Positions 5,311-55,503 of a stretch of DNA of 64,000 nucleotides are shown piece after piece. The DNA comes from a virus. The stretch lies in IMG/VR virus record IMGVR_UViG_3300025738_000001. One strand, written 5' to 3'. The notes beneath the pieces were generated by a model. It had not been told where the DNA came from, made no database searches, and was given only the letters and a program-made list of their open reading frames with translations. The translations under genes and the position numbers were made by a program. The first letter of the stretch is position 1; every line of letters starts with the position of its first letter.

Positions 5311-5588
5311 ACTTAAAGAATGGGGTATTAACGGTGTTAGCAGCTATAGGTATATACTTATCGGCTATCGCATTTAACAACGTACAAGAGGATAGTAAGT
5401 CTATCCAAGCGATACTACTCGCACAACAAGCCAATACGATTCAGCTCACTACTCTGGTTACTGACATGAAGAATAGAGCAGATAAAGTTGATGCATTACT
5501 TATTAACCAAAACGACTTAGACCGCAGAGTGTTTAAGTTAGAGGTTCTAGCCGCACGGGATGTGAAAGGTGGTGACCCATCATCATAA
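5298..5588 (+). CDS. Lysis-cassette membrane protein (holin or i-spanin-like)
   Basis: Overlaps the endolysin stop by 13 nt. Single TM (GVLTVLAAIGIYLSAIAF) followed by a coiled-coil-like tail. Confidence 0.5.
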   Translation: MELLNLKNGVLTVLAAIGIYLSAIAFNNVQEDSKSIQAILLAQQANTIQLTTLVTDMKNRADKVDALLINQNDLDRRVFKLEVLAARDVKGGDPSS

Positions 5589-5597
5589 ACTCCAGAT

Positions 5598-5640
5598 AAA
5601 AAGAAAGCCTATCTAAAATTAATTAGATAGGCTTTTTTGT
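5598..5640. terminator. Bidirectional intrinsic terminator
   Basis: Stem of >=11 bp (agcctatctaa / ttagataggct) flanked by an A-run on the left and a T6 run on the right. Lies between convergent genes. Confidence 0.85.
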
Positions 5641-5823
5641 TTATGAAGCTTGGGGTTTTAAGAATCGTGATACACCTTCGGCGCTATCAATCATATTCTG
5701 TTTATTTGCCTTCGCTTCTAAAAGATTCATATGCTGTGTAATCATCCCGATTAGATTAGCACGTTCTACTGGACCACCTGCCTTAGCCAATCGGCTTTGT
5801 AAGTATTGAATAGGATGTTTCAT
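5641..5823 (-). CDS. Hypothetical protein (60 aa), antisense to the late operon
   Basis: ORF track; RBS aaggaa 7 nt before the ATG. Second gene of a two-gene leftward island. Confidence 0.55.
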   Translation of the reverse strand: MKHPIQYLQSRLAKAGGPVERANLIGMITQHMNLLEAKANKQNMIDSAEGVSRFLKPQAS

Positions 5824-5876
5824 ACATGAGGGGTTCCTTCTTAAGTGTTGATGGGATAATTAAGACTACTCTTAAT

Positions 5877-6098
5877 TTAAGGTTCTTGCAACTCTGCGTT
5901 ACTTGTTTCTATATCTAGCTCTATATACTGAATAATCTTAACCAGTAATTTAGGGTGTACTGTAGTTTCAGTTAGGCTATTATCAATTTGTGAGTGCCTA
6001 CTTACTTTTTGTAATTCGATTCCTTCGACACTATCTAAGTATTCTACTTCATACTTCCCTTCGTCCAGTTCTAATGTAATTGTGTGTATTGTGCTCAT
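5877..6098 (-). CDS. Hypothetical acidic protein (73 aa), antisense to the late operon
   Basis: ORF track; RBS gagg before the ATG. First gene of the leftward island. Confidence 0.55.
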   Translation of the reverse strand: MSTIHTITLELDEGKYEVEYLDSVEGIELQKVSRHSQIDNSLTETTVHPKLLVKIIQYIELDIETSNAELQEP

Positions 6099-47837: not shown

Positions 47838-48191
47838 ATAGAATTGCTTTTTGATAAGCCAGAAGCATAGTAGAAAACTGGCATCTAAAACTCCCCGTGT
47901 TGGACATACGGTTCCACCTATTCACGGGCTAGTTAAAATTTGTTCAACACCCTTTGATAAACCAGAGGTGAGAGGAACTGGTACGAGGGTAGCGAACTCC
48001 CTTGTCAGGTGTAACCACCACCATTACGTGCTGAGGTTACGTCCTGAGTTGCGGCTCAGGTATCCTATTAGGATACGTCCAGTCGCGCTTTACTGGAATT
48101 ACCGAGCCATAATATTAGCTTGGGAACAGGTACGTAAGGATGCTTACGTGTTATCTGCAAGCCGCTCTTGCAAGCCTGCCCAAGTCTAAAC
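47838..48191 (-). ncRNA. ORF-free hairpin-rich RNA segment inside the tRNA array
   Basis: Perfect hairpins at 48043-48060, 48060-48076, 48132-48149 and 48156-48172 (6-7 bp each). T-arm-like AGGGA-GTTCGCT-ACCCT followed by CGTACCA ends near 47979. Butt-joined to flanking RNAs. Confidence 0.3.
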
Positions 48192-48273
48192 TGGTCGGAG
48201 TGACGGGGTACTCTCCCGCACGTAGGCAATTAAAGGCCTGCTCTTTGAGGTATCGTATTTGAGCTACACTCCG
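48192..48273 (-). ncRNA. Non-canonical tRNA-like RNA (82 nt, ACCA encoded, 8-nt anticodon-like loop CUUUAAUU)
   Basis: Perfect 7-bp acceptor CGGAGTG/CACTCCG + A + CCA; UA-GCUC...GAGC D-stem with a 17-nt loop lacking GG; 4-bp AGGC/GCCU stem; T-arm GCGGG-AGAGUAC-CCCGU lacks TTC. Confidence 0.45.
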
Positions 48274-48575: not shown

Positions 48576-48648
48576 TGGGGGATAGGGTGGAATCGAACCA
48601 CCTTAGTCGACTTCTGCCCAAACTACGATGTTCTCGCGTTGCTATCCC
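48576..48648 (-). ncRNA. Degenerate tRNA-like RNA (73 nt)
   Basis: Acceptor GGGATAG/CTATCCC and canonical T-arm GGTGG-TTCGATT-CCACC. Position 8 is C, the D-stem is 3 bp, and the anticodon region is a bulged 7-bp stem with loop GCAGAAG. No readable anticodon. Confidence 0.45.
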
Positions 48649-48942: not shown

Positions 48943-49156
48943 TGTCTTCTCCCGGTATTGGACCGCTTAATAGTTCTACCAGTTTGGTAGCGCGTGTGAA
49001 TACTTCTACGATTTTTTTAGATTCAGGACTGCCTAATTCGGCCTCAGCTACAATGTCCTGATAACGGGCACGGAACAGTACGAACTTGCCTCCGCCATCA
49101 GCACCTGAGAATACATCAAGCATGATTTGGATGTCGTCATCTGTTACTTGGGCCAT
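48929..49156 (-). CDS. Hypothetical acidic protein (75 aa)
   Basis: ORF track; start overlaps the ligase stop by 13 nt. Confidence 0.55.
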   Translation of the reverse strand: MAQVTDDDIQIMLDVFSGADGGGKFVLFRARYQDIVAEAELGSPESKKIVEVFTRATKLVELLSGPIPGEDNGIS

Positions 49157-50538
49157 ACACCCTCCGGTACAGTTAAACCAAAGTCATCTGCTATCTGCTT
49201 CCAATGACGGTCTTGGCTTTCACGCCATTGCACAACTTCACCAGTACAACCATCATGAGACAGTTGTAGTTCACGTAGCATTTTATAAGTGCAATCGTCA
49301 TACTCGATAGGTATATCCGATTTACGTAGAGCCTCTTGTACACCGTGATTAAACAGGCTGTTTCCTTCAATCTCGTCAGAGTACACGTCTTCTTTTATTA
49401 GTACGCCTACTGCACACATGCAGCCTTCATCATTACGATAGACACATTGGCCTTCATCGTCTTGAGCTGGTTTACCTTGCTTACGTAGATGGTTCACAAC
49501 TGTTGAGAATAATTCTTGTAATTCCATACTGACTCCTAAAAAGTCTGGTTCAGATTTGTCCTGACGCTCTTCCCGTACTTTGGGAATACGAATCAAGCCA
49601 TTCTTAGATGAGGGTTGTAAGCCTGCTACATGGTAAATCTTACCGATAGGGCTATCTGCTGTGTTATTAATACCTGCTTGGTATAGAGCCTCACATGAAT
49701 CATGAGTCCATCCTTTACCCGGCATGGCTTTCAGTTCTACACCGTTGGCGTATCGGAAGTATAGATTAGCAACTAAGCCCTTATACTTTCCAGTACCTTC
49801 TTCGAATGAGATACATTCCAAGTCAACATGCATACCCCGAACAATTTTCATTTGATGCCAATCTTTAGCGCCACATAGGTAACCTACGTTCTGCTTAAAC
49901 ACTGCACCTTCTTTACCTGCATTGATATGCTGTTCGGCAAAGTCTTGAGCTTCCACCCAGTTGTTGATAACAACATAAGGTAATATTTTAAAGTAAGCAC
50001 CATCGAACGCATCAATCAAGTCGGAATGACGGTCAGCATAATTAGTAGCACTGAATCCTTCTATGAACTCATTGACAGTAATAGCATCAAAGTGTGAGAT
50101 GTAGAGTCCTGCAGCAATAGCCGGTTGGTCACAAATGGAACCATCCTTCTTATCTACTTTGACTCGTAATGGTTTAACACGAAGAGGATTAATACAGCCA
50201 CCAAGTTCTTCAAGCGAACATTCATGAGTACTAAGTATCTCACCGAAGTATAAGCCTGGTTCTATTTGGGCCTGGAAGTAGCTCTCAGCTACATGATGCG
50301 TATTTGGCATAAGTTTACCGGTACGATTAAAGAGTCTCACCTCGCCATCGTCACGTACAGCCACGGCACAAAATACACCGTCTTCTTTTAACTGACCAAA
50401 CATAGGCCAAGATACTTTCTTGTGAAGAATACCTTGCTCTACTAATGGATTAACATCTTCGAAGTTCTTCACCAGTTGGTAAATCTTCTTCTCTTTACGA
50501 TGGTCTGCTGGCAAACCATAGAATTCAAATATATTCAT
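49144..50538 (-). CDS. ATP-dependent DNA ligase (T7-like core) with ~125-aa Cys-containing C-terminal extension
   Basis: Motif I LKEDG, motif IV KEGAVFK, motif V DWHQMKIV with T7-ligase-like spacing, and an OB-like LIRIPKVREER. Start set at Met26 (ATGA coupling to an upstream micro-ORF). Confidence 0.8.
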   Translation of the reverse strand: MNIFEFYGLPADHRKEKKIYQLVKNFEDVNPLVEQGILHKKVSWPMFGQLKEDGVFCAVAVRDDGEVRLFNRTGKLMPNTHHVAESYFQAQIEPGLYFGEILSTHECSLEELGGCINPLRVKPLRVKVDKKDGSICDQPAIAAGLYISHFDAITVNEFIEGFSATNYADRHSDLIDAFDGAYFKILPYVVINNWVEAQDFAEQHINAGKEGAVFKQNVGYLCGAKDWHQMKIVRGMHVDLECISFEEGTGKYKGLVANLYFRYANGVELKAMPGKGWTHDSCEALYQAGINNTADSPIGKIYHVAGLQPSSKNGLIRIPKVREERQDKSEPDFLGVSMELQELFSTVVNHLRKQGKPAQDDEGQCVYRNDEGCMCAVGVLIKEDVYSDEIEGNSLFNHGVQEALRKSDIPIEYDDCTYKMLRELQLSHDGCTGEVVQWRESQDRHWKQIADDFGLTVPEGVWPK

Positions 50539-50687
50539 CCTGCATATTCCTCGGGTGTGTTGCCGCCTTTGAAAGTTACCCATATGGTTACACAAGGTAG
50601 CGGATTGAAACAAATACGTTTGTTATAAGGTGACCAATGAACGCCTACCCAAAACGACGCTAATCGAAATATCATGCCTGCTTTCAT
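50535..50687 (-). CDS. Micro-ORF (50 aa), below the ORF-track cutoff
   Basis: Hand translation MKAGMIFRLASFWVGVHWSPYNKRICFNPLPCVTIWVTFKGGNTPEEYAG. RBS gaggtga 4 nt before the ATG; ATGA overlap with the ligase start. Confidence 0.55.
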   Translation of the reverse strand: MKAGMIFRLASFWVGVHWSPYNKRICFNPLPCVTIWVTFKGGNTPEEYAG

Positions 50688-52063: not shown

Positions 52064-52279
52064 GGGACGGCCAGGGGAATCGAACCCCTGTTAGAGACTA
52101 GGACATCAGTCACATGCCGTTAAGGTTAATTAGGCCTATGTGGATAGTTGCAACTACACACTAATCATCTGTTGGGGAATTAAACCCCAATGCTAGTTTC
52201 CTTTGCACCAAGCACCGACATTGTTCGGATTACGGGAAAGCCTACGATAGTAGCGCGCTCTATAAAGTAGCGCCGTCCC
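52064..52279 (-). ncRNA. 216-nt tRNA-like RNA: acceptor stem + T-arm closing a ~140-nt structured insert
   Basis: 8-bp perfect terminal pairing GGGACGGC/GCCGTCCC. T-arm AGGGG-TTCGATT-CCCCT next to the 3' strand. Internal T-arm-like GGGG-TTTAATT-CCCC at 52174-52188. 8 nt downstream of tRNA-Ser. Confidence 0.5.
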
Positions 52280-52287
52280 ATAATTAG

Positions 52288-52376
52288 TGGCGGAGGTAGC
52301 AGGACTTGAACCTGCACACCCTTTCGAGTGAATGAATTAGCAATCCATGACGATACCAATTTCGCTTGATACCTCC
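52288..52376 (-). tRNA. tRNA-Ser (GCT), class II, CCA encoded
   Basis: Hand fold, 89 nt: acceptor GGAGGTA/TACCTCC, anticodon arm ATGGA-TTGCTAA-TTCAT, long variable arm CACTC-GAAA-GGGTG, T-arm GCAGG-TTCAAGT-CCTGC, GCCA. Confidence 0.9.
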
Positions 52377-54879: not shown

Positions 54880-55503
54880 TTATGCTCTCTTCATCTGGAA
54901 GCGAGTTATGTTTAGTGCAGTATCAAAGTAGACTGCTATACCTGAGCAATAACCATCTTCATGGTACAACATTTTTAGTGCCTCTTTAGCAGCACGCTCT
55001 ACAAACTTGAAAGCGTTAGAGGATGTATAAGCACACCCTTTGAACTGTTTGGATTTACGTACATAGCCTAAGCAAAAGTGATGCATGGCAATACGTGCTT
55101 GTGATGGTTCAATACCATAGTCAATAAGGTGACGCATAATATTGGCATCAAGTTCATCTATATTAATGAGATGTTGTAAGGCTATCTTAGAGATGGGTTT
55201 GAGGTCACGGCAAACGTCCGCTGCTTGAGATAACAATTCGCTCCATAAGTCGAAGCCTTCATTGTTACGTACAGCCTGGATAGCTCCTATGGCCTGCATC
55301 TCGTCTTCATAGGTGATACCTACATTGGTTCGGTGTGCGATAGTATGCTCAACAACATCATGTGCAATGAGTACCGGTGTACGATTATCCTCACGTACAC
55401 AGTTGATGATTGAGCCAAGTGTACCAAAGCGGTCTTCGGATAGATTGCCGAAACGTACTTGCTCCCCGTAAGAGCAGTAGTGCAATACAAAACGACCTTT
55501 CAT
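54880..55503 (-). CDS. Hypothetical protein (207 aa)
   Basis: ORF track. Possible HD-like LIAHDVVEH, but unconvincing. Confidence 0.6.
   Translation of the reverse strand: MKGRFVLHYCSYGEQVRFGNLSEDRFGTLGSIINCVREDNRTPVLIAHDVVEHTIAHRTNVGITYEDEMQAIGAIQAVRNNEGFDLWSELLSQAADVCRDLKPISKIALQHLINIDELDANIMRHLIDYGIEPSQARIAMHHFCLGYVRKSKQFKGCAYTSSNAFKFVERAAKEALKMLYHEDGYCSGIAVYFDTALNITRFQMKRA

Follow-up and report, generated by a model that had tools for sequence, protein, structure and literature searches.

Species 1 RNA of bacteriophage T4 is encoded by rnaC, a gene on the tRNA strand that lies at one end of the tRNA cluster. Its T-arm (CCGGG-UUCGAAU-CCCGG) directly precedes the 3′-terminal strand and is accompanied by long extra hairpins. 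To our knowledge, the species 1 and species 2 RNAs of T4 are tRNA-like, stable phage RNAs with no known job. RNase P and the 3′-end tRNA enzymes recognise a tRNA by its acceptor/T-arm minihelix, which also occurs joined to RNA of other kinds: in the TMERs of gammaherpesviruses a tRNA-like handle of viral origin is joined to another RNA, and the mascRNA of MALAT1 is a comparable tRNA-like 3′-end processing unit.

We analysed a 64,000-nt stretch of viral DNA (IMG/VR record IMGVR_UViG_3300025738_000001; hereafter the window), which belongs to a divergent N4-like phage with a 3131-aa virion RNA polymerase (vRNAP) ORF, an RNAP2 and a PhoH/helicase/PolA module. The RNAP2 is ~36% identical to that of known Schitoviridae. 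On the minus strand, behind a tRNA-Ser gene, lies a 216-nt element (52279–52064) in which a tRNA-like shell surrounds an insert. Judging from its sequence, we put at about one in two the probability that this element is a chimeric RNA gene, tRNA-derived and confined to one lineage, whose product is probably excised as a non-decoding tRNA-like RNA.

The tRNA-like shell and its leader

The two ends of the element form a terminal acceptor-like helix. Its 5′ strand, GGGACGGC (52279–52272), and its 3′ strand, GCCGUCCC (52071–52064), are an inverted repeat with 100% complementarity in the sequence itself, and folding of the element by itself gives the resulting 8 bp pair probabilities of ≥0.98, so that the end pairing reported in a preliminary description of this locus is exact. 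Simple arithmetic gives ~0.005 perfect 8-mer complements expected by chance in the 300 nt that precede a T-arm. The canonical T-arm, AGGGG-UUCGAUU-CCCCU (52089–52073, P=1.0), does lie beside the 3′ strand, as also reported, and its loop conforms to the tRNA consensus UUCRANY. A single G (52072) separates the 5-bp T stem from the 8-nt 3′ strand; the arm can be extended to 6 bp by pairing CAGGGG with CCCCUG (52090–52072, P=1.0), giving an acceptor/T stack of 8+6 = 14 layers compared with 7+5 = 12 in a tRNA. The 3′ end reads ...GUCCC and is followed by UAAC, which leaves C or U as the discriminator and no encoded CCA, unlike the tRNA-Ser, tRNA-Met and tRNA-Cys genes of the window, all of which encode CCA. 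Four helices are robust in the element folded alone (the acceptor, the T-arm, GCU/AGC at element positions 9–23 and CUAC-UAUC-GUAG at 27–38), the remaining ones having probabilities of 0.8 or less. Relative to shuffled sequence, the fold of all 216 nt has a z-score of −2.84, which is carried by the ends.

When both strands of the window were scanned for a canonical T-arm followed by an all-Watson–Crick 7-bp acceptor, five sites only were returned: tRNA-Ser, the element, a 73-nt degenerate tRNA-like RNA (48648–48576, minus strand; 7-bp acceptor GGGAUAG/CUAUCCC), tRNA-Met and tRNA-Cys. The 73-nt RNA is further linked to the element by its leader. The minus-strand order at the locus is tRNA-Ser(GCU) (52376–52288; CCA encoded; RF00005, 33.8 bits; called by ARAGORN only at -ps80), then CUAAUUAU, then the element. 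The end of tRNA-Ser at 52288 confirms that the element starts 8 nt past it. The 9-nt leader ACUAAUUAU (52288–52280), between the tRNA-Ser CCA and the element, forms together with the following GGGA the 13-mer ACTAATTATGGGA, of which the window holds exactly two copies, at 52288–52276 and 48657–48645 (~0.002 expected for a given 13-mer, by arithmetic). The 13-nt leader said to be common to the element and the RNA at 48648 is thus an exact match. On the strength of the five-site scan and of a 13-mer found exactly twice, we judge the tRNA-like element to be real and beyond chance. The two RNAs also have the T loop GGUUCGAUUCC in common; beyond the 13-mer and the T loop, their interiors, pre-T-arm segments and flanks are not significantly similar.

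The 9-mer CTAATTATG occurs five times on the minus strand of the window and never on the plus strand; at two of these sites it is the context in which a real gene starts, the ORFs being those that begin at 55503 and 37634. This strand bias and these two positions suggest that the leader may be a motif found generally in intergenic or start regions of the phage, and not a signal specific to processing. The published descriptions consulted of the middle promoters of N4 RNAPII present them as AT-rich, with no consensus against which the leader could be compared. Within the precursor, the leader and GGGA have an alternative pairing partner in 52237–52229 (9 bp, P ~0.59), in competition with the acceptor helix, an observation that we count against our preferred explanation. 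The element lies on the same strand as every neighbouring gene, and neither a sigma-70-like promoter nor an intrinsic terminator was found near it; tRNA-Ser and the element are probably on one transcript. A search of the neighbouring ORFs for tRNA-repair or CCA-adding enzymes found none.

The leader also bears on the reading frames. The 13-codon frame of the preliminary description does exist, running from AUG 52221 to UAA 52180, but it is not a whole frame: it is the tail of 33 codons that open at ATG 52281 in the leader and close at the same stop, TAA 52180 (product MGRRYFIERATIVGFPVIRTMSVLGAKETSIGV). That these 33 codons are a small protein-coding gene with CTAATTATG as its start context is almost certainly wrong. 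The frame is open, and the same motif starts the two ORFs just mentioned. On the other hand, it lacks a Shine–Dalgarno sequence, the upstream nucleotides being the CCUCC of the tRNA-Ser acceptor; its AUG lies within the 8-bp acceptor helix; the 73-nt RNA has only 2 codons in the matching frame; and no gene is called at this site in any of four contigs.

The D-arm remnant and the insert

The interior had been described as containing no recognisable D or anticodon arm. This holds for the software, but a comparison by eye reveals a D-arm remnant at the 5′ end: positions 1–24 of the element read GGGACGG-C-GCUA-CUUUAUA-GAGC-G, arranged like the acceptor strand and D arm of a tRNA. The remnant, GCUA-CUUUAUA-GAGC (52271–52257), consists of 3 bp and an A:G mismatch (GCU/AGC, P 0.94), and its loop, CUUUAUA, is without G18G19. 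Genomic tRNAs that share this acceptor stem, of the form GGGACGG-UA-GCUC-AGUUGGUA-GAGC-A, served for comparison. The 120 loci include many isotypes (Lys, Phe, Asp and others) and give no pointer to a parent tRNA.

Directly after the remnant, in the position of an anticodon arm, stands the hairpin GC-CUAC-UAUC-GUAG-GC (52256–52240, P 0.96). Its loop has 4 nt; an alternative 7-nt loop, CUAUCGU, produces an ‘Asp(AUC)’ parse that is sub-threshold and seen with ARAGORN at -ps85 only. The next ~150 nt (52239–52091) are an orphan insert, with neither a significant fold nor a homologue. The view that the insert is structured did not survive comparison with shuffled sequence, the interior (52245–52100) folding no better than its shuffles (z −0.09). 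The second T-arm-like hairpin reported within it, GGGG-UUUAAUU-CCCC, is indeed present at 52188–52174, and extends to UUGGGG-UUUAAUU-CCCCAA (52190–52172). It matches the true T-arm at 13/15 positions and forms a direct repeat with it, at a spacing of exactly 100 nt, the loop having changed from UUCGAUU to UUUAAUU (C56U and G57A). A further hairpin, GGCAU-GUGACUG-AUGUC (52118–52102), resembles an anticodon arm and ends 12 nt upstream of the T-arm; it yields a ‘Val(GAC)’ parse only at ARAGORN -ps90 and with the acceptor shifted.

Three further accounts of the insert were tried and rejected. A tandem duplication of ~100 nt leaves no significant similarity outside the T-arm copy, an inner cloverleaf lies 3.8 kcal/mol above the minimum-energy fold, and similarity of the interior to the tRNAs or tRNA-like RNAs of the window phage and its relatives is not significant. 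Antisense targets of the insert within the window amount to chance 10–12-mers, with none longer than 12 nt.

Comparison with known RNA classes

ARAGORN at default settings calls neither a tRNA nor a tmRNA on the element, and its intron mode is likewise empty. At Rfam gathering thresholds the window contains three tRNAs only and the element is unmatched. The Infernal comparison with Rfam, covering the tmRNA, tRNA and group I models, left the element with sub-gathering T-arm matches only: at E≤10 these local matches were the whole yield, with no tRNA, Intron_gpI, group II intron or ribozyme, the tmRNA model (RF00023) scoring 12.7–16.3 bits on the T-arm part alone against a gathering threshold of 47, and the mascRNA model (RF01684) 16.9 bits against 42.5. 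Taking a score of at least 29 bits with RF00005, or an ARAGORN call, as the mark of a decoding tRNA, the element shows neither. Its geometry also departs from that of a canonical tRNA in the 4-nt loop of the hairpin at the anticodon position, in the D loop CUUUAUA and in the 8+6 stack. Its sequence shows that the element cannot decode: it is without a canonical anticodon arm, a G18G19 elbow contact or an encoded CCA, its stack has 14 layers, and none of the features that decoding requires is present.

The idea of a tRNA gene disrupted by an insertion, put forward in the preliminary description, fails in its simple form. We made all 1635 single-deletion derivatives of the element with a length of 66–95 nt in silico and ran them through ARAGORN; not one (0/1635) was called a tRNA at the default or the 95% threshold. 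At thresholds of 90% or lower, the deletion constructs gave parses with a shifted acceptor only, Val(GAC) at -ps90 and Asp(AUC) at -ps85. An intron-containing or otherwise interrupted tRNA, spliced to a functional RNA of ~75 nt, is accordingly very improbable. The acceptor, D-arm remnant and T-arm of the shell speak for it, as do the two sub-threshold parses, but the insertion sites that these imply fall outside any anticodon loop, and no group I or group II intron was found by Rfam at E≤10. An insert of ~150 nt is also below the minimum for self-splicing group I introns, of which we know none under ~200 nt. The preliminary description correctly judged the element to be shorter than a group I intron or a standard tmRNA would require. 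Origin of the element by replacement or rearrangement inside a tRNA gene is probable.

That the element is a small tmRNA-like RNA for ribosome rescue, its tag frame ending at the UAA in the loop at 52174–52188 or reading ATIHIGLINLNGM*, is likewise very improbable. Its ends do make a tRNA-like domain, with an acceptor helix and an adjoining T-arm as in tmRNA, a stop codon does lie in a hairpin loop, and phage tmRNAs exist (one is encoded by L010). Further, ARAGORN at -ps80 calls a tmRNA on the element, with the tag ATIHIGLINLNGM* and the remark ‘tag not identified’, having called nothing from the default down to -ps85. The same -ps80 call, however, is made on 43 of 500 interior-shuffled controls (8.6%). 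Pair 3:70 is G3–C70 in the 8-bp register or A3–U70 in the 7-bp register, and in neither the G3:U70 of tmRNA; the discriminator C or U, the missing ACCA and the Rfam scores argue in the same direction. Neither candidate tag, ATIHIGLINLNGM or the ..SIGV of the 13-codon frame, resembles known tags or ends in the usual hydrophobic ..AA degron. The comparison with tmRNA is not supported. The element is neither a tmRNA nor an intron-bearing tRNA, and neither ‘tmRNA’ nor ‘tRNA’ is an appropriate annotation for it, whichever reading is right.

Distribution, origin and described counterparts

Searching for homologues in which covariation might be seen returned nothing beyond the near-identical contigs of one phage. 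Queries of 551, 191 and 66 nt, compared by blastn with 50,697 phage records, matched in the tRNA-Ser or T-arm only. IMG/VR was scanned with patterns for the exact 3′ end, for the leader plus T loop, for the second hairpin plus T loop and for the 5′ 40 nt with free loops; these scans for the shell and interior uncovered no homologue, their sole match being a chance one in the unrelated contig L009. That viral contig has, at 141–262, an independent case of a ‘tRNA inside a tRNA shell’. The leader plus T loop had 0 matches in a metagenome collection that appears to be without the source contigs, and the conserved motif of the leader upstream of the tRNA slot had 0 matches in the same collection and 0 in IMG/VR.

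The element occurs only in four near-identical contigs of a single phage population, for which L008 (identical), L006, L007 and L001 are listed. The population contigs are ~99.8% identical across their common region, L001 ending in the ligase gene, short of the element. Between them we observed 0 SNPs in the element, with ~0.6 expected, a number so small that their absence is uninformative on selection. The flanking 185-aa and 147-aa proteins were found, among 5.8 billion proteins, in two other lineages only. Both lack the element, and both retain the same conserved structured leader upstream of a tRNA slot, which lies after this leader and before the first middle-region ORF. In the window phage the slot holds tRNA-Ser and the 216-nt element; in L003, whose downstream 185-aa protein is 70% identical to that of the window, it holds tRNA-Tyr and tRNA-Asn; and in L004/L005, where the corresponding protein is 57% identical, it holds tRNA-Tyr alone. 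Because the contents differ among the three lineages, we regard the slot as one that turns over fast and the element as young and specific to one lineage.

This distribution also suits a less favourable account, in which the element would be a dead by-product: a tRNA pseudogene scrambled by illegitimate recombination and read through polycistronically, giving no discrete RNA. We consider this unlikely. The element is missing from both sister lineages and has no homologues; its interior folds at chance level; G18G19 and CCA are lost in a genome whose tRNA-Ser, tRNA-Met and tRNA-Cys genes retain an encoded CCA; in the precursor, the acceptor helix has a rival in the alternative pairing of the leader; and two further degenerate tRNA-like cloverleaves, absent from the relatives, are present in the window genome. 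Against it stand the 8/8 acceptor pairs, the 6/6 T-stem pairs and the consensus T loop, which show zero decay, and the tendency of phage genomes to shed useless DNA. It is also established that an intact minihelix normally suffices for RNase P. If the element were a relic only, it would still document the fast turnover of the slot in this N4-like clade (Tyr+Asn; Tyr; Ser plus chimera), across three lineages with a common leader.

Our preferred explanation, the chimeric RNA gene, would begin with a rearrangement or replacement inside a tRNA gene in this fast-changing slot. The product would be a chimera whose shell (the 8-bp helix, the D-arm remnant and the T-arm) encloses a ~150-nt orphan insert with a mutated second T-arm. 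The element would be transcribed from the minus strand behind tRNA-Ser, and the transcript would be cut at ~52279/52280 and near 52064, releasing a tRNA-like RNA of ~216 nt. We also count in favour of this explanation the two other degenerate cloverleaves of the genome, the precedent of T4 rnaC and the tRNA shell seen in L009. Since the minihelix recognised by RNase P and the 3′-end enzymes is intact, such cutting of the precursor is probable. The 14-layer stack and the missing CCA, for their part, may make the element a poor substrate for RNase P and 3′ processing. The flawless ends count for selection on at least the shell.

Perfect ends around an unrecognisable middle are also compatible with selection for a functional cargo. 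One might envisage a tRNA-scaffolded small RNA in which the shell is a handle for processing and stability and the ~150-nt insert is the active part, which might for instance regulate, or act as a decoy for a defence nuclease or for a host enzyme that targets tRNA. We think this rather unlikely. It would fit the contrast between the perfect ends and a middle wholly unlike that of the 73-nt RNA with the same leader and T loop; T4 species 1 RNA offers a precedent, and the TMER and mascRNA handles are parallels. The insert, however, is without significant structure, without an antisense match of more than 12 nt elsewhere in the window and without a homologue in our searches, and the nearest relatives lack it. 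We regard as distinctly unlikely the specific proposal of a natural tRNA scaffold, in which a minihelix competent for RNase P and 3′ processing would excise and stabilise a ~150-nt cargo that acts in trans. Such a cargo might, for example, inhibit or serve as a decoy for an anti-phage nuclease or a tRNA-directed enzyme of the host, and the outermost G:C of the 8 bp would mimic the G−1:C73 hallmark of tRNA-His. If true, this would be the first description of such a device from an N4-like phage.

Set beside described RNAs, the chimeric element has partial counterparts in several classes. As in tmRNA, the ends are an acceptor helix and a T-arm around a long insert, and a short frame has its stop in a hairpin loop; the element differs in being 216 nt long, in lacking G3:U70, ACCA and the conserved sequence of the tRNA-like domain, and in its atypical tag-like peptides. 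With the degenerate tRNA genes and tRNA pseudogenes of phage tRNA clusters it shares a variable tRNA slot, the company of degenerate cloverleaves and the loss of canonical D-loop and anticodon features, whereas its length of three tRNAs, its flawless ends and its second T-arm copy set it apart. The TMERs and mascRNA likewise join an acceptor/T minihelix to non-tRNA RNA, the minihelix there being a substrate of RNase P or RNase Z. Those RNAs are eukaryotic and their handle is separate and beside the cargo, whereas here the cargo would lie inside the shell.

The closest analogue appears to be the stable species 1 RNA of T4, which the element resembles in outline only, as the preliminary description had proposed: rnaC has the same T-arm before its 3′ strand and the same kind of added hairpins. 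Both adjoin tRNA genes, pair their 3′ strand with their 5′ end, are non-decoding and have additional hairpins where a tRNA has its D and anticodon arms. Blastn against phage records detected no sequence homology of the element to rnaC or to any T4-like phage. The T4 RNA has 139 nt and two long, very stable hairpins (z −4.6), compared with 216 nt and an insert that folds at chance level. Accumulation is an experimental result for the T4 RNA and a prediction for the element. Its terminal helix, with 8 perfect bp, is much stronger than that of rnaC. Were the RNA to accumulate, it would illustrate how a tRNA gene can become a carrier of other RNA, and would place a second, unrelated example beside the 50-year-old puzzle of the T4 species 1 and 2 RNAs.

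Conserved noncoding sequence around the tRNA genes

A noncoding block of approximately 200 nt lies immediately 5' of the tRNA slot and is retained in all three lineages compared, namely the window phage (52556-52756, minus strand) and the two related lineages represented by contigs L003 (9548-9752) and L004 (9700-9892). The block contains four invariant motifs (GCGUGUAAGAUU, GGAUG.CCC, GGUUUGA.UCAC and AUUAGGAAAA) and compensatory changes at 12 of its 34 predicted pairs, and a search of Rfam returned no match for it. The block is a candidate for a new RNA of this N4-like clade, either a structured leader or a small RNA.

Within the slot itself, the tRNA-Ser(GCU) of the window (52288-52376, minus strand) is atypical, scoring 33.8 bits. 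Its acceptor stem (GGAGGUA/UACCUCC) is nearly the same as that of the tRNA-Tyr(GUA) found in the same slot of L004 (9891-9976; GGAGGUG/UACCUCC), and both molecules carry a long variable arm. The two may be an orthologous gene in which the anticodon and identity have switched.

Further conserved noncoding blocks are found between tRNA-Met and tRNA-Cys (window 48117-48203 and 47893-47930, minus strand; L003 11887-11973; L004 11287-11324), where some 550 nt contain no convincing protein-coding gene. These blocks are 85–97% conserved, whereas the proteins of the same relatives are only 57–70% identical, and this difference in sequence conservation suggests that the stretch holds more structured RNAs or regulatory sites.

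Degenerate tRNA-like RNAs and a strand-biased 9-mer

The window encodes a degenerate tRNA-like RNA of 73 nt (48576-48648, minus strand), which is not present in L003 or L004. It combines a 7-bp acceptor stem (GGGAUAG/CUAUCCC), a canonical T-arm and a 3' end reading CCCCCA with D and anticodon arms that are unrecognisable, and its top Rfam match is tRNA-Sec at 20 bits. A 13-nt leader is common to this RNA and to the 216-nt element (52279-52064, minus strand), in which a tRNA acceptor and T-arm shell surrounds an orphan insert.

A third degenerate cloverleaf (48197-48272, minus strand) was called by neither Rfam nor ARAGORN. Its minimum-energy fold has an ensemble frequency of 0.42 (z = -2.4) and comprises a 6-bp acceptor stem (GGAGUG/CACUCC), a 17-nt D loop closed by the stem GCUC/GAGC, an anticodon-like arm whose 8-nt loop reads CUUUAAUU, and the T loop AGAGUAC. 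The heptamer UUUAAUU occurs both in a loop of this cloverleaf and in the T-arm-like second hairpin of the 216-nt element (52188-52174, minus strand).

The 9-mer CTAATTATG is present in five copies on the minus strand of the window (55508, 52286, 50044, 48655 and 37639) and in none on the plus strand, against an expectation of ~0.24 per strand. Two copies provide the start context for real ORFs, those beginning at 55503 and 37634, and another two sit ahead of the tRNA-like RNAs. The 9-mer may be a motif specific to this phage that acts in starts, promoters or processing.

The DNA ligase gene

Neither L003 nor L004 has the ATP-dependent DNA ligase gene (49144-50613, minus strand) in its syntenic region, and the gene was therefore probably gained horizontally by the window lineage. 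The closest ligases are those of T7-like Vibrio phages (54% amino acid identity). Gene calls vary among contigs (405, 464 and 489 aa), and a 2-nt indel lies near the ligase start (about 50560) in L007, a near-identical strain.

Shell-like RNA and tmRNA in other viral contigs

Chance pattern matches led to two further viral contigs. The first, which is unrelated (IMGVR_UViG_3300037313_000131, 141-262), holds an independent case of a 'tRNA inside a tRNA shell'. Here a 7-bp acceptor (GGACGUG/UACGUCC-A-CCA) and T-arm surround a complete inner cloverleaf, identified by ARAGORN as tRNA-Leu(CAA), so that there are two T-arms in all. The second (IMGVR_UViG_3300032312_002325) carries a full-length tmRNA (5582-5974; tag ANNNNYMAIAA*) within a tRNA cluster, a reminder that ARAGORN at default settings readily finds genuine phage tmRNAs.
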